Below are positions 43,096-63,647 of a stretch of 64,000 nucleotides of DNA, piece after piece. The translations under genes and the position numbers were made by a program. The stretch lies in the IMG/VR virus record IMGVR_UViG_3300020438_000001, positions 1-64,000 of that record, one strand, 5' to 3'. Each line of letters opens with the position of its first letter. Position 1 is the stretch's first letter. The notes under the pieces were generated by a model. It ran no database searches. It saw only the letters and a list, made by a program, of their open reading frames with translations, and was not told the origin of the DNA. The stretch is from a virus.

Positions 43096-43850
43096 TATCC
43101 GATTAATCTTCTTTCTGAATTACCTAAATCTGTATAAAAAGTCTGATGTGCTGTTTGAGAAGGTTTTAGTTTAAGCCATTGTAATCTAATGTTATCCATC
43201 ATATCTAAGTTAGGCATATTAGCTGCACCTCTAGCTTGTTTAACATACCACTCCCAATCTCTCTGACTATCTCTGTAATGTGCTTCCGGGGATGCTCCTT
43301 TTCTCCAGTTAATTCTATCAAGCATCATAGTGATATAAGATTTAATAGCTCTTTTATAACTAACATGATCTGGTATCATTGGGAAACCTTCATGATCTAC
43401 TTTGATTCCTCTAAATGCTAATAAGATACATCCGGACTTAAAAGATGTAATAATAAAATTATCATTCATGTAATAACAATCTCCTCCTCCACCCAAGCTT
43501 CCTCCCATCTGCGGAAAGTTATCTTTATCTACTTCTTTACCATCAATAACATTTGTAGCTGTACTTGTAGGAGATGTAGAGATTGCACCAAAAGTACCAG
43601 TACATTGATGTAAAGGATGCCCCTTATATGAAACAGAGTCAGATAAATGTAGGTTGCAAGGAAGTGGGGCTCTGTGATCTTTAACACAAATTTCAGCTAC
43701 TAGCTCTTCATATTGCAAGCCTGCTCCAATAAGCTCTAAAGCTTCTCCTCCCCATTCTATTACATCCCAAATATCTAACTCTTCATAGATAGCGTTATCT
43801 CTATATACTCCTTCTATTATTTCATTTATTGATATAAATTTGTAAATCAT
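43095..43850 (-). CDS. Hypothetical virion-module protein
   Basis: 251-aa ORF, translationally coupled to the 1835-aa gene. Confidence 0.65.
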   Translation of the reverse strand: MIYKFISINEIIEGVYRDNAIYEELDIWDVIEWGGEALELIGAGLQYEELVAEICVKDHRAPLPCNLHLSDSVSYKGHPLHQCTGTFGAISTSPTSTATNVIDGKEVDKDNFPQMGGSLGGGGDCYYMNDNFIITSFKSGCILLAFRGIKVDHEGFPMIPDHVSYKRAIKSYITMMLDRINWRKGASPEAHYRDSQRDWEWYVKQARGAANMPNLDMMDNIRLQWLKLKPSQTAHQTFYTDLGNSERRLIG

Positions 43851-43859
43851 TAGCGTTAT

Positions 43860-44336
43860 TTATTCATAGTAATCAACTTTCTTTTCTTTTAATAACGAGG
43901 CTAATCGTCTCTTATTAGTTCTCGTTGCTTGGAAACTGTACACACTTTTGTTTTTAACTATTGCATTTTTCTTAGACCATAACCATCTGTAATTAAATCC
44001 ATCAGTATGATCATTTAAATGATATATTACTTTTTTATGTTTATTAGTTTCTTTCCAATTTATTTTTAATTTATTCTTATTTACAGAATAATTCATTTCT
44101 TTTTTTAAAATTCTTAAACTCCCTAATCTATAAGGAATTTTAAACTCTTTAGCTTTTAGAAGTATGTCATTGATAACTAGTTTATTAAACTCTTCACATA
44201 TACTTCTATATTTTTTATAACCAACCTTATAAAAATCATCATACTCTTTATAAGCTTGAACTAATGTACAACTAGTTGCCGGCTTGTTGTCTAGTAGGTC
44301 CTGGCAATCTGTCTCCATTTGCATTATTTGTTTCAT
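43860..44336 (-). CDS. Hypothetical basic (Lys-rich) protein
   Basis: 158-aa ORF that overlaps the upstream gene by 65 nt, so the start is uncertain. Its composition differs from the neighbouring structural genes. Confidence 0.5.
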   Translation of the reverse strand: MKQIMQMETDCQDLLDNKPATSCTLVQAYKEYDDFYKVGYKKYRSICEEFNKLVINDILLKAKEFKIPYRLGSLRILKKEMNYSVNKNKLKINWKETNKHKKVIYHLNDHTDGFNYRWLWSKKNAIVKNKSVYSFQATRTNKRRLASLLKEKKVDYYE

Positions 44337-44997
44337 CTCCTGGTGTTGATAATATTATATTAATTCTTTTTTGTAAAATTTGATTAGTTACTGAATTCGC
44401 CATAGATAATGAAATCGGAAAAGGGAATTCCCAGTCATACTCGCAAGCTGAAATAATTGGATTTTTTGCGCTCGTACAGTAGTTCATCTTCCATACTTCA
44501 GTAGGATCTTCGAATACTCCTGTTACCTTGACTGCTTCAATCAACATATCGCAACTTATGTATAAGTAACCATTCTTAAGATACCATCTCGCATTTGAAC
44601 TTGTGTATTTGTTATATTTGTTCCACTTGCGTCTTGTATCAGTAGTCTCTGAGAATGCTCTCGCACCATCTAAAGACTCAACAGCTAATATACTATCTCT
44701 ATTATTTCTTTGCACTGTAGTCGGGATTGGGCTAATAGACTTAAGGACATGTACCCCCATGTCTACCTCACAGCATTCAGAAGCGTCTACTGGCTCTAAA
44801 TACACGCAGTTTAGATATTCCGTGCATGAGGCCGGTACTCGAACTTTTCTACTCATCATTTGTGTGAGTAGCATTGATCTTTCCTGCATGACCCAAAATG
44901 CACATTGTCTGAAACTAACATCTGCATCGTCAGAGCTTTCTCCTCCGTATGCGATATTAATTATATCATAAACTATCTTATTTAAATTTATTGCCAT
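44272..44997 (-). CDS. Hypothetical virion-module protein
   Basis: 241-aa ORF in the operon context. Confidence 0.65.
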   Translation of the reverse strand: MAINLNKIVYDIINIAYGGESSDDADVSFRQCAFWVMQERSMLLTQMMSRKVRVPASCTEYLNCVYLEPVDASECCEVDMGVHVLKSISPIPTTVQRNNRDSILAVESLDGARAFSETTDTRRKWNKYNKYTSSNARWYLKNGYLYISCDMLIEAVKVTGVFEDPTEVWKMNYCTSAKNPIISACEYDWEFPFPISLSMANSVTNQILQKRINIILSTPGDETNNANGDRLPGPTRQQAGN

Positions 44998-45001
44998 TCG
45001 C

Positions 45002-46144
45002 TTAAATATTTACCTGTAAATAACCTTCACATCCCTTTTCCTTATTCCATATATATGCTTGAGCACATCTCGATGCGGAATAACCCATCAGTTTGTGCCA
45101 AGAATCGTTAGCGCATATTGAAGGAATAAATCTTACTTTAATTCCTCTATACTCGTTAACCATTTCTTTATGAAGATGTCCACAATGAACTTCTCTAAAT
45201 GTAGTTCGTGCAAACATCATCGGCTGCTCTGTAGCCATTATAAGTGGCATATTCGCAGCTTTCTCTTTATCTCCATGAGTAAACATAATCATGTTAGTTC
45301 CATATTCATAATACTTTCTTCCTTCTGTATTATTGTCTACACTAACATTATCATCTTTCATATACCACGCAGATAAAACTTCACCTGCATAGAACATACG
45401 CTCATGATCATGATTCCCCTGAATAACAACAACATCTACTGGAGCATACTGACTTAAATAATTTATAGCTTTTATCATTAGTTTCGTATACCCAACAAAA
45501 GATTGCTGCCAATCCATTGTATCATCTTGAGGAGTTCCCTTTGTTGTAGCTCTACTAGCACCTTCAGAATTCATTCCGTCGTTACCTATAGGCAGTAAGA
45601 ATCTTTCTATATTTAATCCTTTTGCTCGCTGATGTAACTCTTGAATTGAATTCATATAATTAACTTCAGCCTGCTCTGGACTAATACCCGTTCTCTTACC
45701 ATAATGAATATCCGGTAAAGATATTTCATATACAACAGGGTTTTCCTTTCTTATATCATACGACTTTTTTAATGTCGTAGGAGATATAGATTTTAAACTT
45801 TCAAAGAACTCATCTTTAACTTCTCTTATAGCTTGGTCTCCCTCTTTAGTCACTATTGAATAACGAGTTTCACCTTGCATTGTTTGCCATATCTTCACAG
45901 ACTTGACATTGGATCGGTCCCATCCTTGCGCTGTTAGTAGGGCATCAAAATCAGAATCATTAATATTTATATTATCATTAACTTCTTCTTCTTCCCTTTC
46001 CCATTTAAATCCTCCAGCACTTTTACGCTGACCTTTTAATACTCTACAGATACTTCCTTTATCAATATCTGTTTTATCTGACGCCTCTGTTATGCTCTGG
46101 TAACGTCCCACCAGTTGACCTTCGTACGTGATCTGTAATATCAT
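45002..46144 (-). CDS. Calcineurin-like metallophosphoesterase with an N-terminal NUMOD1-like helix-turn-helix
   Basis: MPP motifs in order: LPDIHYG (DxH), PIGNDGM (GD/GND), IQGNHDHE (GNHD/E), FTHGDK and HCGHLH (GHxH). The N-terminus YQSITEASDKTDIDKGSICRVLKGQRKSAGGFKWE resembles the HTH modules of phage homing endonucleases. Confidence 0.8.
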   Translation of the reverse strand: MILQITYEGQLVGRYQSITEASDKTDIDKGSICRVLKGQRKSAGGFKWEREEEEVNDNININDSDFDALLTAQGWDRSNVKSVKIWQTMQGETRYSIVTKEGDQAIREVKDEFFESLKSISPTTLKKSYDIRKENPVVYEISLPDIHYGKRTGISPEQAEVNYMNSIQELHQRAKGLNIERFLLPIGNDGMNSEGASRATTKGTPQDDTMDWQQSFVGYTKLMIKAINYLSQYAPVDVVVIQGNHDHERMFYAGEVLSAWYMKDDNVSVDNNTEGRKYYEYGTNMIMFTHGDKEKAANMPLIMATEQPMMFARTTFREVHCGHLHKEMVNEYRGIKVRFIPSICANDSWHKLMGYSASRCAQAYIWNKEKGCEGYLQVNI

Positions 46145-48055: not shown

Positions 48056-48210
48056 TATCTTGTATTTTTTATTTTATTAATAATTCTTTTTACTTTATTT
48101 TCTAACTTCATATACTCTTTCCCTTCTTCATACCCCATATTTCTAGTTAGGTCCCAATAGTATTTGGATTTATTTTTAAACATTCTGCAAATATATGAAA
48201 AATAATTCAT
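48055..48210 (-). CDS. Hypothetical small basic protein (doubtful)
   Basis: The ORF track gives 48055-48240. The internal ATG at 48210 overlaps the stop of the 3677-aa gene by 1 nt (TAATG), which would give 51 aa. Confidence 0.35.
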   Translation of the reverse strand: MNYFSYICRMFKNKSKYYWDLTRNMGYEEGKEYMKLENKVKRIINKIKNTR

Positions 48211-51200
48211 TACACACAGTCGGATAAATATTCTTTCCATAATTCAAATAATCTATTAGCGTCCATCTGATCAATAGGAATGTCTGGTATATAAAAGTCC
48301 ATACCATAATTACTTAATGATCCTCCTTTGTATCCTGTTGTATGAGTAGGATCTCCTCCTCCCGACGCTCCCATATACATATTTGGAATTGTTGGGTCTG
48401 TTACACAATAAGCCTGCATTCCAAAAGCTGCTGGCACATCATAATAATCTGAACAACTTACATGTCCTGTTAAATTTACTGTTCCGGGTTTACCTCCAAT
48501 AGCTTGATAGATATGATAGAACATATCTCTAATAGAGTCACTGAATTGTGGAGACGGTACATTGTCTGATCCTAAATATAACATTACTCTATTTGTAGCT
48601 TCATTAAGTTGAGCAGCTCCTACATTTACATTACCATTAAGATCAATACCATATCTATAAGCATCCATATAATTATCATAATGTAATTTCCAAGTTGTTG
48701 TTAAATTACCTCCTGCGTCTAATCCATAATTATTCCAATCCGTAGCAGGCACTCCATTATCTAATGGATTACCACACGTACCTATTGGATTAGTAAATAC
48801 ATTATTTGTAACTACACCATTATTATTTGCTGTGTAATAACCAATAGTAGCTTCATCACATATAATCATTGTAATAGCACTTCTATCTCCACCTTCAAAT
48901 TCATGATAAGGATCACTAAATCCTTCATAGCCTGTTGCGTCTTGCCAAGGATTAAGTTGCGTAAACCCATCAGTTGCATAACTACCTGGTAATATTAGTA
49001 TATCTTTAACTAGACTATCCATAGTTATAAGGTAATTACCACAAGCTAGTGGCGCACCTCCCACACCATTAATTATTGTTGATTGGAATGGAATTTTATT
49101 AGCATTAGGTAATGTACTTCCAGTAAATGGATTTGGCATAGGTCCGTTAGCTCCTGCATTACCAGTTATCGGATATGTAGCCCAAGCTAACCAATCTTCA
49201 TATGGAGTACCACTACTTGAAGGAACTGTTTGTCCTGTTCCATTATAGTTAGTACAACTATGAGATACATTAGGACCAGGTATTATATATAAATGTCCTC
49301 CATATTGCGGATACTCTGCTTTTAATTGATTAAATGCTGGAATAACTACATTAGTTTTAAACTGAGATATTTTTGTTAATTTATCAAATGCGTTTCCACT
49401 GAATGTTGAAGACATATCAAATATTACATAGAGATTTGAATTACCAAAACAATCATCACATATTACTTCATTCGCCTCTAAACCAAATGGAGGATTACAA
49501 TCATCACACATGTCTGCAACCTTTTCCATTAATATTTGCATATCAGGATCTTCAATGCAGTTCACACAATCTCCTTCATATACTCCTCCGTCAGGATCAT
49601 AACTAGCACAGTTTATAGCACAATCTGCTAGTGAGCTATACTGTCCCGTTCCACCTATTACTGTAACACATCCAGCTGTAGGATCACAATCCCATGTAGT
49701 TAAGGCTCCTGTACAGAATGGATTTAGAACACAACCATTACAAGCTGCACATGCTGCTAAACCTCCGTTACCATTATTCCATGTTCCAGATCCATCTCCT
49801 GGGTCTATACATGTACTTACACCTGATGCATCAATTATACAATTCCACGATTCAACATAACATGGTTGAGTATTACTTGCTATTGCAGCATTACAATCAA
49901 CAAGAGATGCAAAAAGTCCAGAACCATTTCCAGGGTCTTGGCACGTAAGTGTTGTTGAGCCTGGCGTAAATTGTCCACAATCAAATGAAACAGGTGTATT
50001 AACACAACAGTTTGCTCCTCCGTTTGGATTATTTACAGCAGTCTGGCAATCAGTTAAAGTTGCAAAAGCTCCTGATGATCCTTGAGCTGGTACACAATTA
50101 CAAGATGTATCACAATCCCAAGAGGTTGAAGGGCAACAATCTACTCCTGTATTAGGATTTATATTAGCTAAACATTGTGCTTCACTTGGCCATCCTGCTG
50201 CCGGACCTAACTGACAATCACATGGGCCCACACACGACCATTGCTGACCTCCATTACTACAAGTTGCACATGATGCATAAGTAGTATCTACTGTAACTAT
50301 TATACATGTTAGTGGATCACAGTTTTGGCTTATATCAATATAATAACATTCTGTAGTACCATTAACTTGTACAATCTCTCCTGCTAAAAATGCATTATCT
50401 ATATCTACATTTGGACATACATTATCTATTATATCATTAGGGTCAGTACAATTTATAAGTTTATAGCAATCTAAAGGATTACCACTATCACAATCAAGGC
50501 AATCAACATATACATTATTTATTGTTACAGTTCCTGCTGGTACACACGCAGCTCCTGGAGTTGAAGAACATGGTCCACATACTCCTGGTAAATAACATGT
50601 TGAATCATCTAAACCTGGAACAGTTACTGGACCTACTAAATCTACAACTGATCCTACAACACCTGATAAATCATTTGTTACTGTTATACATGATGTACTT
50701 GATATACAATCACACCTAGAACTAGCAATAGCAAAAGATACACCTGGACCTACAATTCCGTAATGAGCATTTATAAGTGTATTAGTACCAAAGTATGGTG
50801 TACCAGGATTTGTAACTCCGGCTACTCCTAACAGTATAAGATTATCTAATAAGTCAGACCATGTAGCAAAACCAGCAGACATTCCTGCAGGAGGAGTCGT
50901 TGTACCCGGCATATAAACAGCAATAGTTCCGTTATTAGGAAATGGAGCATAGAACTCTCTATAATGTCCTCCTCCTGGAGCTGGACAGAAATCTGTACCA
51001 TTTGGCTGAATATTATTACCATATTTATGACCAACCATTACTGTATTATTCAAACCATTAGCAGGAATAGAAATAAATTGCAGAGCGTCTCCTGCGCCCC
51101 CACTTGTTCCTACCATAATTTCTGTAAGAGCAGAACAACTATCACTGCTAGGAGTACTTCCAGCACATGGGCATAATTCATAGCATAATTGATTAACTGC

Positions 51201-54200
51201 ACAACAATCTGTACAATCTAAATGATCTTGTGTTACTACTACTGCCACTGCTCCCGTTGGTGGGCATGGTTGTGGTGTACAGTCTATTTCATAACATGCT
51301 CCTGGATATAAATCTATTTCTACAACAGTACCATTACCTACAGTTCCATTACAGTACCCACTTAAATCTGTCGTCGTAACCACTGTTTGTGGTACTCCTA
51401 GTATTGTATTACATGCACATAAGTTAAGAGTATAACATTGATTAGCTTGAGTTGTACAGTCTAAACAATCTGCACCTTGTGTTGAACTAACTGGTACAAC
51501 AGGTGTTGTATCTACATAGCCACTTGGTAATGAAGGTAGATATTGTACATCCCAACATCTTAATCCTGCTGGAGTACCATCATCCCAATCCATTATTCCT
51601 GGTGCAACAGGAGTTAAATTTGGAAAGTCTGTAGAATGATATACTAAAGGAGTACATCCTGTTAAACAGTATTCATCCTCACATGCATAATTTGCACTTG
51701 GATTTCCATAAATACCACAAAAAGCTCTTTGCTCATATATACCACTTGCTCCTGCAAGACCTGTTGGGAATACTGATGAGAACTGAGCTGTTGTAGCCCA
51801 CGGTCCCATTAAAGCATCTGAATTAGCAGTTCCACATACTACATTTCCACAGGTAGAATTACCTGCTCCTTGATAACAAGGACATCCACAAGGAGCTCCT
51901 GTTAACGCAGTACATAATGCTTGATCCCAAAATATATCATGACCTAATCCAAATGCATGCCCAAGCTCGTGAGTTACAACTAATTGTAAATCAAAACTAT
52001 CAGCAACTACTGGATCTGGAACACCCATACCTTTTCTCCAATCCTCATTGGCATCAATCATCATAAAGCTATTCCAACTAGTATTTCTTACTCCGGCTCC
52101 TCCATTACCTGGAACCATATTTGGGTCTGGGCTATAAGCATAAGCAAGAACGCCTAACTTACTTCCTAAACTAGAACAACTAGTATTACATGGCCCATAA
52201 CCAAATCTAAAATCTCCTATATTACTAACTCCATTCATATCTGTATAAGTACCATTAGCTTGAGCGGTTGCTATTCCTATTGCTGGTGTTATACCTGCTG
52301 CAGCACTTTCTACGCCTACATCTGTAAAGGTTACTGTAAGGTCCGCTCCATAACCACAAGTTGTATTAAATCTACCTTCAATTACTTCTTTCATTTTTTG
52401 GAAACATCCTGCAATTTCAGCTTTAAACTGAGCAATATCTATTGTATATGTTTTTGCATAAACTGCACATCCCGGAGTTCTTCCGTTTGGATTTGCTGTT
52501 GTTGGACCTTGTTCAAAACTTAAAGTAACTCCTGCCCCACTTTGTCCTGGAACTTGTGTGCCTGGTGCACAGAAACTATAAGTAAAATCTAATTGTTGTG
52601 CTACACCTGGTACTAATTGAGTTCCTAAATTCTGAACTGCATCTACTAAGCATTGCATTCTTTGAGGTCCTGGAGCTTGACATGTAGGAGACCAAGACTT
52701 ACCGTTAGCAACCATTGCTGCTGGTTGATTAGCCGGATCTGATATATCGCATAAATTAGTTACAGCTCCCCCTCCTGTGCAATCACATTCTGTAATTTCA
52801 AATCCATCTTGTCCTCCTGGGCTACCAACACAATTTGCATCTGAACAATCTGGATAATTATTAGTTATTAGAATTGCTTGTATATTAGCTGGATCACAGT
52901 CACAAGGTCCCCATAAATATGTAGGGAATTTTGTTCCCATTACTCTACCTCCTATATTATAGATAGTAGCACTCATACCAAGTGGGCCCATTCCTCCATT
53001 ACCATCTATTTGGCTTGCAATATTTGCTCCAATAGGATCTTCTGGATCTGCAATAACTCCAATACATGCACTTATATTTCCTGCAGGTCCAGGAGCAGTA
53101 CCTACTTTTCCTGGATATAGATCGTCAGTATTTACATTTTGCATAGCGAAACCAATCATACCATTAGGCATTAAAGCTATATCACCTATACTCGGTCCAT
53201 CTTCACCTGGCCAGTATGGATATTTCCATCCATTTACTTGTGTATCATCTGGAGCTCCTCTTGTAGTCCAATTATCATAAACTGGGTCAGGAAGTAAATC
53301 TGACCAACTATCAACGGTCATTCTTTTAATTGTACCTGCTGATTGTAAAGAACTTGGTACAGCATCATTTGCCCAATACACATGTGTTGAGTTTTGTGTA
53401 ATAGCAATCTGACCAGCGCTATCACCCCAGTTTCCACCAGAGCCTCCAAATTGTCCAGTACCTATAGCTCCTAGCATTTGATAAACACCATTCCAAGCTC
53501 CTCCATTCCAAGCATTTGTCTGTGTTAAAACAGGATCTCCTGGTCCTGTCATTGTTCCATTAGACATATTTAGTGACCAAGCTACAACCATACAACCATC
53601 ATTAGCTCCGGCTGTATTATCTACCCAGATACCACAATGAGCAAATACTTTATTATTAGGACCTACTAACATTTCTCCTGAACACTGTTGCTTTAATGTG
53701 AATGTTTGAAGACCGTTATTTAGTGCAAAATCTAAAGCTGTAAACTCTACTCCCCAAACTCCGTTTACAATAGGAATACCGAATACAGCTTGATTCACAT
53801 AATCAAATGAACTACTCATTTTCTTTCTAAAGTAAAAATAGAAATTACCTGTATTATCTGTGTTTGTTACACACATATGTTCAGTAGAAATTCCATTTGC
53901 AATAAGTACTGTATTTTTAGTTGCTGATACTACTCGTCCTTTACCGCCATTGAGAGTCATATCTACAATAGACCAATATATTGGACCATCCTTAACTGTA
54001 TTACATACAACATACCATTGATGGTATAATCCACCTGTACTTCCTCCGTCTGTTTTAGGGAAATATAATGCTCCCTGTTGTGGGAATACTCTACCTTCAT
54101 AACCTCCAGTTCCAAGAGGGTCTCCTCCTGATAGTCCTGCTGCAGCTCCTGTATCATCAAGCATAAGAGTATGCGTTGAATCATATATTAAATGTCCATC

Positions 54201-57200
54201 TGTATAGAACATTATATCACCTTTAGCATAAGCAGTACCATTAATAGTAGCATTCTGGTTAGAACAACAAGTTGCTCCTCCCATTGTACTATAATCAGTA
54301 GCACCAACACTGTTATAATCAGCCATTAATGATGCCCCTGAAAGATTTGGAAGCGGCATTCCAGTACTATAATCTATTCCTAATTGATCTCCAAAGAACA
54401 TCTGTGTTCCATGTAGAGAGTTTCCGCTTGGACATATTTGATAACAAAGAGGACTTCCAATTAAAGTAACAGCGTCTGTACCCACAATAGCTGCATCTCC
54501 TGGAGATATAGTTATATCTGGACCTGCTCCCGGTACACATGTAACTAATAAGTCACAATCAGTTGGGCATGGGTTTGGAGTAGTTGGACAATCCGCACAA
54601 TTAGTTCCTATAGGCGAACCTATAGTTGTTGAGTTTAATACTGTTACATCTATATTTGGAAGTGCTTGTGAACAATCTAATCCTCCCGGTTGTGATACCG
54701 TCCAACATCCTGGGTAAACAATACCATTTACTGTTACCTCTGCTTCAATTACTTGTCCTATATCTCCCGCTACTACACCTGATCCTAATCCTACAATCTG
54801 AGTTGTTATATAACCTTGTCCGCAACAGTGTGTTAATGCAAAACAAGTACCACTAGAATTACAAGTTGTACAATCAGCATATGTAGTAACAATAGCTCCT
54901 GTAGGATATGCTATTGCGCTTGGACCTCCAATAGAAATAGCTTTCCAACAACCTGCCTGAGCGACCCCTCCTAATGTAACATCATGGGCATCAGCTGTTC
55001 CTAAGAAAGGAATAAACGCTAAACTAGTTGCATAATCTACTAGCAGATTAGCTCCAGTGTCACAATGTTCTAATATAATATGAAAATTACATTCACCACA
55101 ATTTGTAGGTGTACTAGCTATAGTTACAGCTACTTGAGGAACATTACAACTAGGATCTATCGCAACTTCTCTACAGAAGTTTTCTCCAGATAACTGGACA
55201 GTCTGTCCTACCAAACCTGGAATTAAAGGAGATAGTATAGCTGTTGTATATATTACATCAGTTGGATCACCACATTTTGTTAGTTTATAACAAACTATAG
55301 GTGTTGTACAAGCAGTACAATCATTAAAAGGTCCGGCAGCTACAGTAAAAGGAGCTGGACTAACACAAGCTATACTATTATCTACCGTCCAACATTCTCC
55401 TGCAGCGTCTTCTACTACACTACCTACATAGGCAGTTAAATTAGATTGGCTATAAACTACTGCACCTGAAGTACAATTAGTTAGAACAAAACAACAATTT
55501 GCAGTAGAAACATTACTAAGACAATCAGCACAATCTGTATATTGAACAATAGCAGGATTTACATTATCTGGTGATTGTAACCACTTTTCACATAAATCAT
55601 TTACAGTCATTCCGTTTGGATGTTGATTCCAAACAGTTGTATTAGTAATAGGATTTAATAAAGTTATTTGATTTACCTCAGCTGTTCCACTTGAATTTAA
55701 TTCTCTTAATTTTAATGTATAAGTAGTAGTAGGACCTACATCAGCTAAAGCAGATATTACAAATAATCTAGTTGTAGAACCTCCCGCTCTTACTGACTCA
55801 ATACCACAAGTAAACTCTCCAGCTGTATAAGCACATATTACTTCTAAGTCTGCTACTAAAACAGCAGCTCCAGTAGCATCATCAATAGTCATTAAATCAT
55901 TTAAACCTCCTGAATTAGTACTATCTCCTATTAACCAATAATCTCCTGAGTTAAAATCAACCGATATATCATGTCCTACAGAGATACCACCATTTTGATT
56001 AGCCGCTCCTGCAAGAGTTATACTTGTTAAAGTTTGAACATATTTAGCAAAATAAGCTACACCTGCAAACTGATAAGCAACAACAAGATGTCCTGTAGCA
56101 GTATAATCATAATCAGCACATGTCCATTCTACAAAACCAGTATTGAATGTTACTGGAGGACTTTCATATCCGTTTATTGCAGAGAACCAAATGTTATTAT
56201 TTGTTTGAGTTACAGTAAGATTATTATGTTTATCAAAAGCAATATCATTTAAATTACCTTGACTATATACTACACCTGAATTAGCTGTAAGTGCTGGAAT
56301 AGATGTTGTATTATTATTCCAGTTATCTATTTCTATAACATTATTATTACCACCATCCATAGCAATATTAAACGACATAAGTATTTGCTGATTAGGAGTA
56401 AAGGCAACAGAGCATTCTGGAGTACTTCCATTAGAACTAACAGAATAATACCCTCCATTTACTACAGCATCTGTAGTTACTGCTGGTAAATTTAATGGTC
56501 CTTGCGCATAACCGTTAGAACCTATAGCACAGCATGGTAAGAAACCAGCACAATCATTATCGACATCATCTAGACAATTTCTACAGCTACTGTATGTAGA
56601 AGCTAAAGCAGAATATATATCACAAGAAGTAAGATTTGTATGATATGTTTTTGTTCCTGGAGGAACACAGCTAAAACATCCTGCTATATTTAGATTATCC
56701 CATGTCCATATTATTGTATTACCACCTGAACCAGCATTACAATAATTTTCAACTTGAGTATAGTTAACGTCACCACTTGATAGTTTTAAAGGGAATTGGC
56801 TCCAATTACGATAAGAACTATCAAATGCCGTTCCTTGAGATTCTTCCGGCCACTGAAAAGCTCCTGGAGTAGTATTATTATTTCCTATAAGAGTAGTTGC
56901 TCCAGTACCCTGATCTATTTCATAAGTTTTTTGTGAGCCTGCTGCACCACATGTACCTCTTAAAGTATAACCATTTACACCCGCACCGGTATATTGTAAG
57001 AATATATCGTTATAATCAAATGGGGCTGAATTAGCTAATAATGTATATGTAGCTCCATTTATATCATATGCAACAATTCTTGGACCTATTGCAATATACA
57101 TATACCCATTTGTTCCTGCAACCGCTGGATCTATATCTCCAGGTAAAGCACCCGCAATAGAAACTGGTGTCATGCCTGTAAGGGCACTTCCTGAGAAAGT

Positions 57201-59243
57201 AGCAAGATCTATTTCTATTCCTGGTGAATAGTTAGTTACTGTATTAGTACTAGTATTTATTAAACCAAAACTATATTTTTCATTTACCCCTGGCGCTTTA
57301 CCTAAGAACCAATGATATTTACAAAGATGAGTTACATCAATTTCAGTACTACCTACAGGCACAAGTCCCACAGTATTTGTAATTGCAGTATAACTGTCGT
57401 AAGTTGCATTAGCTGCAATATTAGTTGAAGTTGATACTGTGTTGTAATCAGGGTGAAATACTTGATAAGCTAATGTATTTGATGTAGGAGAATCCCATAT
57501 GTATGCCATTGCTGTATACATGTTGAAAGATATTCCTCTAACATTAGTAACTTGTAAGCCAGTAATTAAGTTCATACGAACTTCAGATACCCTTACATCA
57601 GTTTTCCATAATTGTTTATTATTATCTACGGTGTATGTACCTACAGAATCACATCTATCAACCAATATAAATGGTGTAGAAGCGACGCCAGTACATATGT
57701 GTTGCGCTGGGGCACCGTATCTTATCATAGTAGCTCCTGGTGTAGGAGTACCTTCAAAATCAAAAGTTGCTGTTTGAGGAGCACTAGCACCATTAATTAC
57801 TCCTATATTGAGTGTAGAAGGTCCAGATGTAGGATCTCCATAAATTTCCCAGTAATCAGTTGACCAAGCTACAGCAGCTGGTACAACTGCTAAGTTCATT
57901 ATATCTATTTGTTGTGGACACAAGAATAAAATACGATCATTGACGTGATCCATCCACATACCTGCAATTATTCTTGATGGACCATTTTGTCCATTCCATA
58001 TATTAGCCCCAGCTCCATCTTCTATATGTCCATAATTAACCGGAGATGCATTAGTCATAATATTTGCAGCGTCTACTACTACATACCTCATCTTTAATTC
58101 ACCTGCAGGAACTGAACTTCCATCAAACCAACCATGATAAATTGTAGCATTATCATAAGTAGAGTCTGGAGAAAAACAACTATGCATACTAAAATATCTA
58201 CTTGGAGTTCCAGGTATTTGTGGCCATGCAATAGGCCCTCTATCTAGTTGTGGGACTGCCGCAAGAGCAGCACCAAAAGCAGAAGCATCCAATATGGTAC
58301 CAGTACTAGCATCTAGATTAAAAACTTGTATAGCAGCCACATCATTAGGCATACCTGGATCACCTACATACTCTTGTATAATAGTAGCAAATTTAAATTT
58401 ATTATGTCCAGCACTAGTAAGATCCATATCTGCTTTAGTAATACTAAATACACCCATCCTACCAGCATCATTATTTGCAGTAATTGCTCCTATTACTGTA
58501 GTTACTGGACTTCCAGTAACTGATGTACCACCATATAGTTCAGGAGCTCCCATAGAACTAATAGTTGAAAATCTATAAACACTGTACTTATTGTTAGCAG
58601 TTACACCGCCCCAATTATTATTTTTAATAAGAAGTCCAGCAGCGTCCTTACCATCTACAGTACAGCAAAATGAAACCATACGTCCATCACATATCGAATC
58701 TTGTAACTCACCGGTTAATGGCCCGAATGATTGGCTAATATTTAAATGGTTGAAAAATTTACCTAAACCACCATTACCATTCATATCAATAACACCAGCT
58801 CTAATACCATTATACATACCATTAAAGAAAGCCCAATATATTGCTCCTGTTGAATTACCTGCACCACTAGCAATACCGCCAGTTACAGAAGCAGATAAGG
58901 TGTCAGAAACTTTTATAAATGTAACTGCTTGAGGGGCAGCTCTATGAGCTCCGGTTTTATTATTTGAAGTAGTAGCTTCAGCACCTAACATAAGGCCTCC
59001 GGTAGAGTCCCATATTTGATAACCGTCTGAATAGAATAGTATATCTCCATCAGCATATACAGTTGTTGATCCTCCTGTTCCATATGTTACATTTGTGTCA
59101 GCTACTATGGTGCAACTACTATAAGGAGCATCAGCAAACCCAATAGTTCCTGGAACAAAATCCATTGCTACTGGGGTTTGAGTTGTATCTACTTTAACAC
59201 TTCTTCCTGTGAATTGTTTTTCAAAATTATCTGCTGTACTCAT
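48210..59243 (-). CDS. Giant (3677 aa) Cys-rich multidomain fibre/adhesin-like virion protein with an embedded metzincin protease domain
   Basis: Uninterrupted 11-kb ORF. Its repeat families, metzincin motif and internal duplication are listed as separate features and findings. Confidence 0.85.
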   Translation of the reverse strand: MSTADNFEKQFTGRSVKVDTTQTPVAMDFVPGTIGFADAPYSSCTIVADTNVTYGTGGSTTVYADGDILFYSDGYQIWDSTGGLMLGAEATTSNNKTGAHRAAPQAVTFIKVSDTLSASVTGGIASGAGNSTGAIYWAFFNGMYNGIRAGVIDMNGNGGLGKFFNHLNISQSFGPLTGELQDSICDGRMVSFCCTVDGKDAAGLLIKNNNWGGVTANNKYSVYRFSTISSMGAPELYGGTSVTGSPVTTVIGAITANNDAGRMGVFSITKADMDLTSAGHNKFKFATIIQEYVGDPGMPNDVAAIQVFNLDASTGTILDASAFGAALAAVPQLDRGPIAWPQIPGTPSRYFSMHSCFSPDSTYDNATIYHGWFDGSSVPAGELKMRYVVVDAANIMTNASPVNYGHIEDGAGANIWNGQNGPSRIIAGMWMDHVNDRILFLCPQQIDIMNLAVVPAAVAWSTDYWEIYGDPTSGPSTLNIGVINGASAPQTATFDFEGTPTPGATMIRYGAPAQHICTGVASTPFILVDRCDSVGTYTVDNNKQLWKTDVRVSEVRMNLITGLQVTNVRGISFNMYTAMAYIWDSPTSNTLAYQVFHPDYNTVSTSTNIAANATYDSYTAITNTVGLVPVGSTEIDVTHLCKYHWFLGKAPGVNEKYSFGLINTSTNTVTNYSPGIEIDLATFSGSALTGMTPVSIAGALPGDIDPAVAGTNGYMYIAIGPRIVAYDINGATYTLLANSAPFDYNDIFLQYTGAGVNGYTLRGTCGAAGSQKTYEIDQGTGATTLIGNNNTTPGAFQWPEESQGTAFDSSYRNWSQFPLKLSSGDVNYTQVENYCNAGSGGNTIIWTWDNLNIAGCFSCVPPGTKTYHTNLTSCDIYSALASTYSSCRNCLDDVDNDCAGFLPCCAIGSNGYAQGPLNLPAVTTDAVVNGGYYSVSSNGSTPECSVAFTPNQQILMSFNIAMDGGNNNVIEIDNWNNNTTSIPALTANSGVVYSQGNLNDIAFDKHNNLTVTQTNNNIWFSAINGYESPPVTFNTGFVEWTCADYDYTATGHLVVAYQFAGVAYFAKYVQTLTSITLAGAANQNGGISVGHDISVDFNSGDYWLIGDSTNSGGLNDLMTIDDATGAAVLVADLEVICAYTAGEFTCGIESVRAGGSTTRLFVISALADVGPTTTYTLKLRELNSSGTAEVNQITLLNPITNTTVWNQHPNGMTVNDLCEKWLQSPDNVNPAIVQYTDCADCLSNVSTANCCFVLTNCTSGAVVYSQSNLTAYVGSVVEDAAGECWTVDNSIACVSPAPFTVAAGPFNDCTACTTPIVCYKLTKCGDPTDVIYTTAILSPLIPGLVGQTVQLSGENFCREVAIDPSCNVPQVAVTIASTPTNCGECNFHIILEHCDTGANLLVDYATSLAFIPFLGTADAHDVTLGGVAQAGCWKAISIGGPSAIAYPTGAIVTTYADCTTCNSSGTCFALTHCCGQGYITTQIVGLGSGVVAGDIGQVIEAEVTVNGIVYPGCWTVSQPGGLDCSQALPNIDVTVLNSTTIGSPIGTNCADCPTTPNPCPTDCDLLVTCVPGAGPDITISPGDAAIVGTDAVTLIGSPLCYQICPSGNSLHGTQMFFGDQLGIDYSTGMPLPNLSGASLMADYNSVGATDYSTMGGATCCSNQNATINGTAYAKGDIMFYTDGHLIYDSTHTLMLDDTGAAAGLSGGDPLGTGGYEGRVFPQQGALYFPKTDGGSTGGLYHQWYVVCNTVKDGPIYWSIVDMTLNGGKGRVVSATKNTVLIANGISTEHMCVTNTDNTGNFYFYFRKKMSSSFDYVNQAVFGIPIVNGVWGVEFTALDFALNNGLQTFTLKQQCSGEMLVGPNNKVFAHCGIWVDNTAGANDGCMVVAWSLNMSNGTMTGPGDPVLTQTNAWNGGAWNGVYQMLGAIGTGQFGGSGGNWGDSAGQIAITQNSTHVYWANDAVPSSLQSAGTIKRMTVDSWSDLLPDPVYDNWTTRGAPDDTQVNGWKYPYWPGEDGPSIGDIALMPNGMIGFAMQNVNTDDLYPGKVGTAPGPAGNISACIGVIADPEDPIGANIASQIDGNGGMGPLGMSATIYNIGGRVMGTKFPTYLWGPCDCDPANIQAILITNNYPDCSDANCVGSPGGQDGFEITECDCTGGGAVTNLCDISDPANQPAAMVANGKSWSPTCQAPGPQRMQCLVDAVQNLGTQLVPGVAQQLDFTYSFCAPGTQVPGQSGAGVTLSFEQGPTTANPNGRTPGCAVYAKTYTIDIAQFKAEIAGCFQKMKEVIEGRFNTTCGYGADLTVTFTDVGVESAAAGITPAIGIATAQANGTYTDMNGVSNIGDFRFGYGPCNTSCSSLGSKLGVLAYAYSPDPNMVPGNGGAGVRNTSWNSFMMIDANEDWRKGMGVPDPVVADSFDLQLVVTHELGHAFGLGHDIFWDQALCTALTGAPCGCPCYQGAGNSTCGNVVCGTANSDALMGPWATTAQFSSVFPTGLAGASGIYEQRAFCGIYGNPSANYACEDEYCLTGCTPLVYHSTDFPNLTPVAPGIMDWDDGTPAGLRCWDVQYLPSLPSGYVDTTPVVPVSSTQGADCLDCTTQANQCYTLNLCACNTILGVPQTVVTTTDLSGYCNGTVGNGTVVEIDLYPGACYEIDCTPQPCPPTGAVAVVVTQDHLDCTDCCAVNQLCYELCPCAGSTPSSDSCSALTEIMVGTSGGAGDALQFISIPANGLNNTVMVGHKYGNNIQPNGTDFCPAPGGGHYREFYAPFPNNGTIAVYMPGTTTPPAGMSAGFATWSDLLDNLILLGVAGVTNPGTPYFGTNTLINAHYGIVGPGVSFAIASSRCDCISSTSCITVTNDLSGVVGSVVDLVGPVTVPGLDDSTCYLPGVCGPCSSTPGAACVPAGTVTINNVYVDCLDCDSGNPLDCYKLINCTDPNDIIDNVCPNVDIDNAFLAGEIVQVNGTTECYYIDISQNCDPLTCIIVTVDTTYASCATCSNGGQQWSCVGPCDCQLGPAAGWPSEAQCLANINPNTGVDCCPSTSWDCDTSCNCVPAQGSSGAFATLTDCQTAVNNPNGGANCCVNTPVSFDCGQFTPGSTTLTCQDPGNGSGLFASLVDCNAAIASNTQPCYVESWNCIIDASGVSTCIDPGDGSGTWNNGNGGLAACAACNGCVLNPFCTGALTTWDCDPTAGCVTVIGGTGQYSSLADCAINCASYDPDGGVYEGDCVNCIEDPDMQILMEKVADMCDDCNPPFGLEANEVICDDCFGNSNLYVIFDMSSTFSGNAFDKLTKISQFKTNVVIPAFNQLKAEYPQYGGHLYIIPGPNVSHSCTNYNGTGQTVPSSSGTPYEDWLAWATYPITGNAGANGPMPNPFTGSTLPNANKIPFQSTIINGVGGAPLACGNYLITMDSLVKDILILPGSYATDGFTQLNPWQDATGYEGFSDPYHEFEGGDRSAITMIICDEATIGYYTANNNGVVTNNVFTNPIGTCGNPLDNGVPATDWNNYGLDAGGNLTTTWKLHYDNYMDAYRYGIDLNGNVNVGAAQLNEATNRVMLYLGSDNVPSPQFSDSIRDMFYHIYQAIGGKPGTVNLTGHVSCSDYYDVPAAFGMQAYCVTDPTIPNMYMGASGGGDPTHTTGYKGGSLSNYGMDFYIPDIPIDQMDANRLFELWKEYLSDCV
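49602..50240 (-). repeat. Five tandem ~40-aa W-x-C / SL-x-DC Cys repeats (aa about 3002-3214)
   Basis: The five repeats begin WSCVGPCDC..., SWDCDTSCNCVPAQGSSGAFATLTDCQTAV, SFDCGQF...GNGSGLFASLVDCNAAI, SWNCIIDASGVSTC... and TWDCDPTAGCVTVIGGTGQYSSLADCAINC. Confidence 0.75.
50255..51690 (-). repeat. Second array of ~65-80-aa C[YF]xLxxC...C[WY]x[VI]...CxxC modules (aa about 2520-2995)
   Basis: Module starts: EYCLTGC, QCYTLNLC, LCYELCPC and DCYKLINC. Mid motifs: LRCWDVQ, GACYEID, STCYLPG and TECYYID. Module ends: DCLDCT, DCTDCC, DCLDCD and SCATCS. Confidence 0.7.
51793..52256 (-). other. Metzincin (matrixin/M10-like) zinc protease domain (aa about 2330-2484)
   Basis: IGDFRFGYG, GVLAYAYSP, FMMIDANEDW, VVTHELGHAFGLGHD (HExxHxxGxxH, nt 51936-51980) and the Met-turn SDALMGPW. 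Confidence 0.75.
54420..55496 (-). repeat. First array of C[YF]xLxxC...C[WY]x[VI]...CxxC modules (aa about 1250-1608)
   Basis: Module starts: CCFVLTNC, VCYKLTKC, FHIILEHC and TCFALTHC. Mid motifs: GECWTVD, NFCREVA, AGCWKAI and PGCWTVS. Module ends: DCTACT, NCGECN, DCTTCN and NCADCP. Confidence 0.7.
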
Positions 59244-59255
59244 TTATTATATTTT

Positions 59256-59915
59256 TTATCCTGGTTCGTTAAAACATTGAAGTTCTACCCAATGCCCACT
59301 TTCAAAAAATCCAGCTCCCGCTGCATTTGAGTTAAAAGCGGAAATGTAATATTTACCTCTTCCTGTTTGTATTGCTCCTGGGCCTCCTCCCATGAATTTT
59401 ACTATATCTCCTCTATCATATGTAAGAACTGGGTCCCATTCTAAACTTCCTCTAGCTTCCCATGCTACTTTTAAATTACCACAAACACTCCATCCTCCTG
59501 GAGTTATTCCGTATATACCTGACCAACATGGAGCCCAACCATCTATAGCATCAAAACAATTTGAACCTCCAGGTTGTGGAAGAGCGTTTTGCCATCTTAA
59601 GTATAAGAATTCTCCGATATTAGCATTTGGTCTTGGGAATATTTTAACAACTTGTCCTGTAGTATAGGCTGTAGTTTCATCCCAGTATATTTTTCCATCT
59701 GTTACCCACTCATCATAACAGTCACATGGAAGAGGTGCATAACATTCTATCATCTCAATGTATGCACCTAAAAGTTTTAAATTACACATTTCGTCTTTGC
59801 ATAATTTGCCTAGACGCTGTTTATCAGTTACTTCTGCTGCTTTGGTTGCAAAACAGCATTTTAATTTATTTAACCTATATATTAGGTCCTCTTGTGTAAT
59901 TGGTTTAAATCCCAT
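59256..59915 (-). CDS. Cys/Trp-rich protein with two CBM5/12-like (chitin-binding-type) repeats
   Basis: WDETTAYTTGQVVKIF...EFLYLRWQN and WDPVLTYDRGDIVKF...GKYYISAFNSN fit the W..x..Y..GD.V...G..Y pattern. The N-terminal helical region is Cys-rich (KCCFATK...). Confidence 0.5.
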   Translation of the reverse strand: MGFKPITQEDLIYRLNKLKCCFATKAAEVTDKQRLGKLCKDEMCNLKLLGAYIEMIECYAPLPCDCYDEWVTDGKIYWDETTAYTTGQVVKIFPRPNANIGEFLYLRWQNALPQPGGSNCFDAIDGWAPCWSGIYGITPGGWSVCGNLKVAWEARGSLEWDPVLTYDRGDIVKFMGGGPGAIQTGRGKYYISAFNSNAAGAGFFESGHWVELQCFNEPG

Positions 59916-60817
59916 TAATCTTTAATTATATATGCTAAGGTTACAAACTGTGGTAATATATTGAAAGGGACTCCTTGTGGAAAATTAAGACTATCTGCTG
60001 TACCATCTCCTGAATTACCAATCAAAGTAACATTATGAGAGTGAGCTCCACAATTAGTATCTGTATCTCCAGTACAATCATTAGTACCATCAAAAGGTCT
60101 AGCTGTAGTCCATTCAAGAGGGTCACCACCAATTCTATTTCTACTCTGAGGTCTATCTACAGATCCCCACCCTGGTGAACCATCTACTTCAAAAAATCCT
60201 CTCCATCTATGAGCGTGTGCACCACTAGTAGCCATTAGAGCAGTATATGATCCTATATTATGAACGTGTGCAGGTATATTACTTTTAGAAAGTGAAACTG
60301 TAGTGCTACCCCCTGCAGCTAAAATTGCACCAAAGTTTGGATCTCCAGCTCCATAAGACGCTATAAATTTTCCTGATAAATTTGGTACTCCTGGAGCACC
60401 ACCATCACAAAGTGTCCACCCAAGAGGAATAGAACCTAAAGGGCCAGACCACATTACAATTATACCAGAAGGTAAGAGTGCACCTTGCTGAATTACAGAT
60501 TGGATTATATTTCCGGCATTAATAACTTGATTACAAGGCGTAGGTGTAGGACCAGTAGTGACTATTACATCACCCTGTACATTTCCATCAGTACCATCTG
60601 AAATATAAACATCCATAAGGGTACAACCATCTGTACCATCTGCTCCGTTTATACCATCAGTACCATTTACTCCTGGAGGCCCCTGTGGACCTTGGGGACC
60701 CTGGGGGCCCGTATCTCCTACAGGAATATCACATGAGTTTGCTTCTGCACAGGTTGTACAGTCACAAGCACAAGATTGTGGATTAACACATCCATTGTTA
60801 CAATTATTACATGCCAT
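59915..60817 (-). CDS. Tail fibre protein: Cys-knot-like N-terminus, collagen-like triplets, phage tail-collar domain
   Basis: There are 9 Cys in the first 30 aa. G-X-Y triplets span aa 34-64. GIIVMWSGPLGSIPLGWTLCDGG...PNLSGKF matches the tail-collar signature (W/F-x-G...P-x-GW-x-x-CDG...P-[DN]-L-x-G). Confidence 0.75.
   Translation of the reverse strand: MACNNCNNGCVNPQSCACDCTTCAEANSCDIPVGDTGPQGPQGPQGPPGVNGTDGINGADGTDGCTLMDVYISDGTDGNVQGDVIVTTGPTPTPCNQVINAGNIIQSVIQQGALLPSGIIVMWSGPLGSIPLGWTLCDGGAPGVPNLSGKFIASYGAGDPNFGAILAAGGSTTVSLSKSNIPAHVHNIGSYTALMATSGAHAHRWRGFFEVDGSPGWGSVDRPQSRNRIGGDPLEWTTARPFDGTNDCTGDTDTNCGAHSHNVTLIGNSGDGTADSLNFPQGVPFNILPQFVTLAYIIKD
60626..60718 (-). repeat. Collagen-like G-X-Y repeat (10 triplets) forming a local GC-rich island
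   Basis: GDTGPQGPQGPQGPPGVNGTDGINGADGTDG. The DNA reads ggaggcccctgtggaccttggggaccctgggggccc. Confidence 0.9.
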
Positions 60818-60832
60818 TATTTACTCTTTTTT

Positions 60833-61432
60833 TTATGAAGTACAAGACGCGCAAGTACCTCTATAGTTACACAACTTATTTACTTGAACAGCCATCTTTC
60901 CTGCTTTGACGGTACTGCCACATCTATAAGCATATAACATGGCTTTATAAAGAGTATAAGCTTCTAATGCATTTGACTTATCTTCACCACAAGGACAGTC
61001 ATCACACATATCTAAATTTGCTAACATTTTATGGACACAACATTTAATTACACTGGTTGCAAGTGTATATTTTCTTAATGAGACTAATTTTCCCGTAGCG
61101 GTTCCATCATCGTATATAATACGATATTCTATATTATAGACACCCTGTTGTATTGTTTGTCCTGATGATCCACCTAAAAATCCCATATGTATATTAAAGG
61201 TTCCATTAGTAGCATTCGGAAGATCTCCGCCTATATCAGCCATAGAAATAACATATGTATTTCCATCTGGAGCTAAAATAATTATTTCTACATCTATTAC
61301 AGATCCTAAGATAGGATTTGGGTTTCCCCATCCTGTATTATTAGCAGAAGAATATGCACCAGTTGTATCGGTAAATAAAAGACTTTTACTATCACATGCT
61401 TCAGCAACTTTGAAGTTTAACTTTATAGCCAT
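60833..61432 (-). CDS. Hypothetical fibre/baseplate-associated protein with a Cys-rich helical C-terminus
   Basis: 199-aa ORF. Its C-terminus KCCVHKMLANLDMCDDCPCGEDK...LCNYRGTCASCTS resembles the N-terminus of the 219-aa protein. Confidence 0.6.
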   Translation of the reverse strand: MAIKLNFKVAEACDSKSLLFTDTTGAYSSANNTGWGNPNPILGSVIDVEIIILAPDGNTYVISMADIGGDLPNATNGTFNIHMGFLGGSSGQTIQQGVYNIEYRIIYDDGTATGKLVSLRKYTLATSVIKCCVHKMLANLDMCDDCPCGEDKSNALEAYTLYKAMLYAYRCGSTVKAGKMAVQVNKLCNYRGTCASCTS

Positions 61433-62945: not shown

Positions 62946-63647
62946 CTATTCTTGTGACATTTCTGAAACAATATGAGTCTGGAACCTTGGGCTAGCTATA
63001 TTCTCTAAAGCCATTGTTACAGCGCCCGCCACTATCTCGGCATGCGTGTGTTCGGCTAATTCGCAGGAAACACCTGGTGTATTTAATATATCTAACCTAA
63101 CTGGTTGTCTCACATATCTCAAAAAGTATCGGTTTATTGTAAAATTTCCGTCAGTAAGTAACTCAGCAAATCGACCATGCATTAATCTTAAAACCACATC
63201 CTTAGTAGGCTGGTTAAAAGGATCATCTACAAGTTTATTATAGTCGTCGTGCTGTATAGCATAGACCCCATTTCTCTCATCTACCCAACTGCCATTGCAG
63301 TTTTCATAACGAATTTCGCATTCTTCGTTAATGGCGAACCAATAAATGTCCGTACCCAATGTGCCATCAGGTAATTCAAAAAGAATACCATTAGGTTTAG
63401 TTGGGGTTTGCGTTGCAGATGGAATTAATGTTACCTCTGTTACTACTTTTCTCAAATCATCCGTTCTCTTCTGAGTTAACTCAAAAGTTTCATTTTTCGG
63501 ATCATGTGAATAACGTTGTTTCACAAAACGATCCTGTGACCTATTAAGCCACAAATCGATTTCTTCAGGTTCAAAATTGGGGTAGTTAAGACTATCAGTC
63601 TTATCTAACCCCACTTTGAATTCTATATGCATTTCTGCTAATGTCAT
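62946..63647 (-). CDS. Hypothetical head-module protein
   Basis: 233-aa ORF with a 1-nt overlap to the upstream gene. Confidence 0.6.
   Translation of the reverse strand: MTLAEMHIEFKVGLDKTDSLNYPNFEPEEIDLWLNRSQDRFVKQRYSHDPKNETFELTQKRTDDLRKVVTEVTLIPSATQTPTKPNGILFELPDGTLGTDIYWFAINEECEIRYENCNGSWVDERNGVYAIQHDDYNKLVDDPFNQPTKDVVLRLMHGRFAELLTDGNFTINRYFLRYVRQPVRLDILNTPGVSCELAEHTHAEIVAGAVTMALENIASPRFQTHIVSEMSQE

Follow-up and report, generated by a model that had tools for sequence, protein, structure and literature searches.

We analyzed 64,000 nucleotides of viral DNA (positions 1 to 64,000 of IMG/VR virus record IMGVR_UViG_3300020438_000001, hereafter "the window") and found that a cysteine-rich module, repeated in tandem within a single giant protein, represents a previously uncatalogued domain family of approximately 65-90 residues. 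The module extends well beyond the window protein and characterizes a large family within the tail gene blocks of aquatic (marine and freshwater) crassviruses. Our preferred interpretation, to which we assign a probability of roughly 0.6, is that the modules, each braced by metal or by disulfides, form a stalk of four beads in tail appendages whose heads can be swapped. The kind of element is already familiar, since tandem small beta-domains are known on phage appendages.

Both module arrays reside in one 3677-aa open reading frame (ORF) on the minus strand, 48210..59243, which encodes 162 cysteines; the coordinates of its parts given below are all on that strand. A first reading of the DNA, which we refer to as the original prediction, had described four to five consecutive cysteine modules at 54420-55496, corresponding to aa 1250-1608 of this ORF. 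We set each module boundary at the residue after a terminal CxxC and confirmed the limits by translation, which resolved array 1 into four full modules and one truncated one at 54429-55520 (aa 1242-1605). The full modules are m1 (55308..55520, aa 1242-1312), m2 (55089..55307, aa 1313-1385), m3 (54861..55088, aa 1386-1461), which is a minimal type with the four core cysteines only, and m4 (54588..54860, aa 1462-1552), which has longer loops. The truncated fifth module (54429..54587, aa 1553-1605) contains the start CDLLVTC and the center LCYQI, lacks the terminal CxxC, and has a weak profile score (independent E-value, i-E, 0.33-0.87). Since this copy is half-formed, the count of four to five was a fair one. 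It is kept in orthologs of the giant protein, and the ortholog P0001 is 81% identical there with no gaps.

The motifs by which the modules had been recognized all occur in the translation: the starts CCFVLTNC, VCYKLTKC, FHIILEHC, and TCFALTHC; the centers GECWTVD, NFCREVA, AGCWKAI, and PGCWTVS; and the ends DCTAC, NCGEC, DCTTC, and NCADC. A DCADC string directly before m1 (55521..55535, aa 1237-1241) had been read as the end of another module. The string is indeed present, but the module that should precede it is weakly supported, with a match to the last ~18 profile positions at an i-E of 0.16; the string may be what is left of a module that has degenerated. Array 2 (50259..51686, aa 2520-2995) consists of four modules, b0 (aa 2520-2596), b1 (aa 2597-2680), b2 (aa 2681-2918), and b3 (aa 2919-2995). 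An insertion of ~153 aa is nested in b2 (50685..51143, aa 2701-2853), between the first and second strands of the module. Once it is removed, joining aa 2681-2700 to aa 2854-2918, b2 becomes a full-length match at 32.0 bits, compared with 18.8 bits for the C-terminal part alone. The insertion matched no family; it is 53-55% identical in the orthologs P0001 and P0002 and 23-29% identical in the other three giant orthologs. Across the whole protein, the pattern [DNST]CxxC occurs 11 times, eight of them closing full modules, which agrees with the at least nine terminal CxxC motifs originally counted.

The repeat is statistically sound, though its copies have diverged far from one another. The window modules share 17-33% identity with the reference m2, and pairwise module scores were weak (many with z of 3-6, and z = 12 for m2 against b3). 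In a leave-one-out test, a profile of six modules was used to score the seventh, with 2000 shuffles of the same composition as the control. Scores ranged from 11 to 29 bits across the seven modules, and 0-1 of the 2000 shuffles reached the real score. The modules of array 1 scored 18.8 (m1), 29.0 (m2), 17.5 (m3), and 15.5 bits (m4), each with 0/2000 shuffles, so the periodicity is significant and chance is ruled out as its source. An external profile, rebuilt on copies taken from other proteins, matched m1, m2, m3, m4, b0, b1, and b3 over their full length at i-E from 1e-18 to 6e-5 (m1 1.9e-16, m2 9.5e-19, m3 6.3e-6, and m4 2.7e-9). No tandem repeat was found at the DNA level, which rejects a recent DNA duplication and indicates that the modules duplicated long ago. 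The identical 3677-aa protein is present on 12 independent contigs from Tara and other sources, and an assembly artifact is thereby excluded.

The module had been called undescribed, and our searches bear this out: neither Pfam-A, PHROGs, NCBIfam, nor the PDB, searched by sequence and with Foldseek, contains a match that would make it part of a known family. The only Pfam-A match in the giant protein (E <= 1) is Peptidase_M10, which lies outside the arrays, and no Pfam family covers the module or the C-terminal domain described below in 69 family members (E <= 1e-3). PHROGs and NCBIfam yielded nothing for the module or its carrier proteins, and the PDB yielded no sequence match to the module profile or the whole protein. 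Among 50,697 GenBank phage records, there was no match to the region by blastn or tblastn, nor to P0009, a typical family member, by tblastn. Word-indexed protein searches with array 1 and with an alignment of 82 modules also returned nothing although relatives exist, probably because the word prefilter misses them. The 94 relatives that did come from word-indexed searching are all unnamed or "hypothetical" except one, labeled by JGI as an "uncharacterized TIGR02145-family protein." A non-exhaustive search of the literature did not find a description of the module.

An exhaustive profile search revealed the extent of the family. Using the seven-module window profile against 1.84 billion representatives, at least 150 protein clusters (50% identity level) matched at E < 1e-3. 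Nearly all of these matches were full-length, with several stretches per protein. Three rounds of profile rebuilding gave 580 copies in 148 proteins, with 1-13 copies per protein; four was the commonest number (63 proteins), followed by three (42). The usual architecture, found in 85 of the 150 members, comprises a variable N-terminal region, three or four modules, and a conserved, uncatalogued C-terminal domain of ~80 aa with the consensus KPGYNTPxC...RYGISNCCPE...KWxIKKELIDL...DPDYxC (e.g. P0004, P0006, and P0007). Five giants, P0001, P0002, P0014, P0062, and P0063, are collinear with the window protein and align with it end to end. P0001 is 63-93% identical to it depending on the region and the other four are 17-55% identical; all keep the arrays and the module number almost without gaps. 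The window protein and the other giants lack the C-terminal domain, and the giants form a separate architectural subgroup of the family.

The C-terminal domain also served to find viral loci. Searching IMG/VR with it returned 136 loci, of which we fetched and examined 80 (L001-L080), where the domain sits at about 10001-10246. In 78 of the 80, the ORF with the C-terminal domain has 3-5 modules, mostly four. A related-locus search with P0006 as the sole query found nothing. Among 185,579 species genomes there was a single match, L081 (JBIPNK010000148.1, 117,852 bp), in a Chitinophagaceae metagenome-assembled genome from Lake Mendota. Crass-like contigs with the family measure 115-125 kb, and this one is of matching size, so it is probably a phage binned into the bacterial genome. 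A cellular origin of the module was rejected on this basis, and the Chitinophagaceae assignment serves as a weak hint of the host.

The position of the module genes points to the tail. PHROG and Pfam scans identified the window as a crAss-like phage with its replication genes on the plus strand, and the minus-strand gene order is CrAss_Ring_3_4, several small cysteine-rich ORFs, a collagen-like fiber gene, the giant ORF, CrAss_Ring_2, CrAss_Ring_1, and crAss_MUZ, followed by three very large proteins. The fiber block is thus bounded upstream by tail ring protein 3/4 (62946..63647, E = 6.6e-22) and downstream by tail ring protein 2 (44272..44997, E = 4.3e-37), after which come tail ring protein 1 (43095-43850, E = 5.7e-55) and the muzzle protein (37588-43095, E = 9.7e-146). 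Directly upstream of the giant gene, the collagen-like tail fiber gene (59915..60817, 13 cysteines) matches PHROG tail fiber families at E down to 3.5e-14, and its match to Pfam Collagen is below the cut-off (21.7 against 27.2 bits, E = 1.7e-4). All of these genes are on the minus strand. Like the rest of the family, the giant gene encodes tandem sets of about four modules within the interval between ring 3/4 and ring 2. In the 80 loci, iterated profiles of the window proteins detected homologs of ring 3/4 in 75, ring 2 in 72, and the muzzle in 68, and every locus has at least one ring or muzzle homolog flanking the module gene on the same strand. A freshwater contig of 124.7 kb (L085) has the order Crass_capsid, the module protein, CrAss_Ring_2, and CrAss_Ring_1.

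We considered that this gene position might be misleading and that the array belongs to a capsid decoration or another protein, of the virion or not, outside the tail. In its favor, it is gene order alone that supports the tail location, and in PhiCrAss001 the fiber protein gp22 is, by gene numbering, encoded outside the ring 3-ring 2 interval (PMC10172136). Yet the ring and muzzle homologs flank the module gene in 80/80 loci as well as in the window, the gene adjoining the giant matches many tail-fiber PHROGs, and the same interval of PhiCrAss001 holds gp38 and gp39, the genes of the hub on which fibers dock (PMC10172136). We regard a location outside the tail as very unlikely.

Structure prediction was consistent with the small beta-domain that had been proposed. 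For the single module m2, AlphaFold2 with the 82-copy alignment gave a mean predicted local distance difference test (pLDDT) of 87.2 and a predicted template modeling score (pTM) of 0.74, in a model with five strands and a helical turn at the CxxC. For m1 and m2 together, based on a 40-row alignment of adjacent pairs, the pLDDT was 90.2 and the pTM 0.68, with all five models within a pLDDT of 89.4-90.3. The same topology appears twice in the paired model, joined by a linker of ~4 residues, and m1 reaches a pLDDT of ~96. A pTM of 0.68 is high for two small domains, which suggests that the two modules would hold a defined relative orientation. Foldseek comparisons of the one- and two-module models with the PDB found nothing significant (best E = 3 and 0.77, TM <= 0.36), and the matches to antibody domains were likewise insignificant (TM 0.16-0.36, E >= 3). 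Against BFVD, the sole significant match was A0A516LFR9 (E = 4e-5, TM 0.73, 47% identity). Mean-field direct-coupling analysis of 697 copies gave no clean ladder for strand pairing or for cysteine partners.

In this fold, the four core cysteines are placed at the end of strand 1, the start of strand 4, and the terminal CxxC. They occupy profile positions 11, 44, 70, and 73 and are present in 100%, 97%, 96%, and at least 86% of 697 unique copies, respectively; most exceptions are alignment-end variants such as CxCxC. In the seven window modules and in 82 diverse copies they are invariant. A further two cysteines, at positions 2-5 and 49-58 (the loop after strand 4), are optional and tend to be gained or lost together: 345 copies have both, 292 have neither, and 60 are discordant (odds ratio 117 over the 697 copies, uncorrected for relatedness). 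The window modules obey this pattern, with m3 lacking both. Because the two co-vary, they probably form a disulfide. By cysteine content, 52 copies have the core four only, 216 have five cysteines, and the others, with 59 seven-cysteine copies among them, have one or two extra pairs. The five-cysteine class consists of the core and one cysteine 1-3 residues before position 44.

What braces the core is a more finely balanced question. The likeliest arrangement of the four cysteines is a structural Zn(Cys)4 site, with zinc slightly ahead and two disulfides nearly as likely; zinc is favored by the odd-numbered cysteine classes, the position of the CxxC where a helix begins, and folding in the cytoplasm, where a Zn(Cys)4 brace would be able to form. 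The competing account is a metal-free brace in which two disulfides, along with the optional third, form in oxic water once the cell has lysed, and we regard it as a serious contender that falls short of an even chance. The joint gain and loss of the optional pair is the usual signature of a disulfide, and the sample was taken from the surface ocean by Tara. The proteins presumed to be ejected as cargo have 0 cysteines in 7756 residues against 4-5% in the outer proteins, as expected if virion thiols oxidize, and the solved structure of PhiCrAss001 shows a tail stabilized by disulfide bonds (PMC10172136). On the other hand, the module proteins fold in a reducing cytoplasm, and a simple pattern scan limited to thioredoxin-type CxxC motifs found none in the window ORFs, which represent 64 kb of an 87-kb contig. 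Moreover, the 216/697 modules with five cysteines and the 59 with seven must each leave at least one thiol unpaired within the module. In the five-cysteine class, a C-x(1-3)-C knuckle directly precedes strand 4, and together with the CxxC at the helix start it may resemble the ligand geometry of zinc ribbons and treble clefs.

Cysteine is distributed unevenly over the structural genes of the window. The three proteins downstream of the muzzle gene (14218-30780, 30809-34204, and 34216-37533, minus strand; 5520, 1131, and 1105 aa) contain none at all. In the fiber block (48210-61432), by comparison, the proteins are 4-5% cysteine; in addition to the giant and its 162, the three upstream neighbors have 10-13 each. 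This split fits a scenario in which ejected cargo avoids cross-linkable thiols and outer proteins exploit them. The only family match in the 5520-aa ORF, which comes after the cargo-like genes, is to the exonuclease-like phrog_298 (8e-15), at residues 1365-1585 of its C-terminal 2593 aa.

The constancy of the array, the diversity of the heads, the conserved copy number, the short linkers, the compact braced fold, and the position in the block of fiber and hub genes together fit a stalk that would project the heads from the tail; we infer this role, as we do the virion location and the brace chemistry. Four modules placed head-to-tail with ~4-residue linkers would make a semi-rigid stalk of four beads. 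At its N-terminal end this stalk would bear a head that varies and can be exchanged, keeping it clear of the virion and directed at the host surface. The heads may be beta-propellers, VWA, or PA14-like domains, and in the window a large unassigned domain and a metzincin protease; in the window protein, two such units of a head and four modules are fused together. The original prediction had offered the modules as either a stalk or receptor-binding units, and of these the architecture favors the stalk, since the array stays constant while the N-terminal heads vary.

The receptor-binding alternative deserves a closer look. Small beta-domains arrayed in tandem on the surface proteins of phages frequently bind, and, like the Ig-like or BACON domains of other phages, the modules themselves could be low-affinity binders of glycans or surfaces that provide multivalent adhesion, instead of mere spacers. 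The polar and aromatic motif T-x-D-L-S-x-Y-V-G is conserved in the family, in a loop that is modeled at lower confidence, and some family proteins carry 9-13 copies. However, the window's own modules have a degenerate version of the motif, the number of copies stays at a strikingly constant four in most members and in each window array, diversity is concentrated in the heads rather than in the modules, and Pfam searches of the giant and 69 members found no match to any carbohydrate-binding family. We therefore consider a binding role for the modules rather unlikely and retain it as the lesser option to the stalk.

Several observations weigh against the stalk interpretation as a whole. Fibers are usually trimers, whereas our module models are monomers. 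The T-x-D-L-S-x-Y-V-G motif looks surface-like and could be a ligand site instead of a packing surface. The commonest cysteine class elsewhere has five, an odd number that is a poor fit to either a pure Cys4 site or pure disulfides. The tail location draws on gene order and on the neighboring fiber gene, and members without the C-terminal domain sit on contigs of 4-7 kb that lack usable gene context. Finally, the conserved end in the common family architecture is C-terminal, opposite to the docking polarity of PhiCrAss001 gp22, a fiber that docks by its N-terminus (PMC10172136). In a bolder version of the stalk interpretation, this difference in polarity would itself be a feature of the system: a new zinc-braced fold would act as a fixed four-unit ruler in the tail appendages of aquatic crassviruses, with polarity reversed relative to canonical fibers. 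The conserved C-terminal domain or the array would then be virion-proximal, and the N-terminal head would be an exchangeable cassette for host recognition. We view this version as speculative and, on balance, improbable.

The remainder of the giant protein is consistent with the two-unit architecture. Head 1 (55536..59243, aa 1-1236) has no Pfam or PHROG match. Head 2 (51687..54428, aa 1606-2519) contains HELGHAFGLGH, an HExxHxxGxxH zinc motif of the metzincin type (51939-51971, aa 2425-2435), and it matches Pfam Peptidase_M10 (PF00413) at 27.5 bits against a cut-off of 24. The virion may carry this metzincin as a protease that acts on the host surface. Homology links residues 61-162 of head 1 with aa 1670-1770 of head 2 (37% identity, E = 4e-8 by BLASTP), at the same offset, and each head is followed by four modules. 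From these homologous head starts and the four modules after each, the giant consists of two fused tandem units of a head and four modules, an internal duplication. In 69 members elsewhere in the family, Pfam identified the heads as Sortilin-Vps10/BNR in seven, VWA in two, and PA14 in one.

Downstream of array 2, we read in the sequence a second, unrelated cysteine repeat of ~45 aa in five copies (49578..50249, aa 2999-3222). Its copies start at aa 3002, 3042, 3087, 3133, and 3184 and follow the pattern [WF]-x-C ... G-x-G-x-[FY]-x-[ST]-L-x-[DE]-C ... C, for which there is no Pfam match. The C-terminal region (48213..49577, aa 3223-3677) also lacks a family match; its conservation is 53-78% in four giant orthologs and 32% in the fifth and most divergent, P0063. 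Near aa 3270, the string IFDMSSTFSG resembles the DxSxS motif of the VWA metal-ion-dependent adhesion site (MIDAS), although the giant has no Pfam VWA match at E <= 1. Between the fiber genes and ring 2 lies a 380-aa gene (45002-46144, minus strand) that matches the DNA-repair exonuclease family phrog_704 at 2e-58 and has weak N-terminal helix-turn-helix/HNH-like matches. This gene within the tail block may be a mobile nuclease. GIY-YIG and LAGLIDADG genes occur in the structural block of the freshwater contig L085.

Comparison with known systems helps to place the module. Ig-like, FN3, and BACON accessory domains of phages are small tandem beta-domains that are exposed and paired with varied catalytic or binding domains, and BACON is known from p-crAssphage. 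The module resembles them in its size (they span ~60-100 residues), its tandem array, and its varied partner domains. It differs from them, and from PKD, in having no Pfam match and no match to an immunoglobulin-like fold (best TM 0.36, E >= 0.77), and its invariant four-cysteine brace is not known from Ig-like, FN3, and BACON domains. With zinc ribbons and treble clefs it shares four cysteines including a CxxC where a helical turn begins, and the commonest class in the family adds a second C-x(1-3)-C in a hairpin turn, as those folds do. The two knuckles of those folds are not found together in the window, though: its modules have one CxxC, and the second knuckle occurs only in the class from other proteins. 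The other two invariant cysteines lie ~33 and ~26 residues away on separate strands, and there is no sequence or fold match. EGF-like and TSR repeats are likewise tandem stalk modules defined by cysteines, with optional cysteine pairs that co-vary. They are, however, eukaryotic and shorter or otherwise patterned, whereas the module proteins are made in the bacterial cytoplasm; the sole EGF-type trace was one sub-threshold cEGF fragment, in a head domain.

The fiber system of PhiCrAss001 (gp22 and gp38/gp39) belongs to the same order and has the same tail neighborhood, and cysteine cross-links stabilize its tail (PMC10172136). The window giant nevertheless showed no homology to any GenBank phage record in our searches, and the PhiCrAss001 fibers are unresolved in the map (PMC10172136). 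The BFVD match, A0A516LFR9, is a viral UniProt entry that carries the same module and is homologous to the giant. It is uncharacterized and bears neither a name nor an annotation; thus, it is evidence that the family has been deposited, not that anyone has described it.

As structural repeats of this kind are familiar, the discovery of the module is moderately surprising. An entry in Pfam would be warranted for it. Few known phages are as abundant as the Crassvirales. In the only virion of theirs known to have been solved, the fibers are the part with the poorest resolution, and hardly any of the aquatic members has been cultured. The stalk domain marks tail-appendage proteins in metagenomes, across at least 150 clusters and 136 IMG/VR loci, and the module array shows where the variable head starts; it is this head that should be tested for host recognition. 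The contrast between presumed ejected proteins free of cysteine and outer proteins rich in it provides a testable idea about redox constraints in virion design. If the ruler interpretation is true, the family would be a direct marker with which to locate and swap receptor-binding heads in uncultured Crassvirales.

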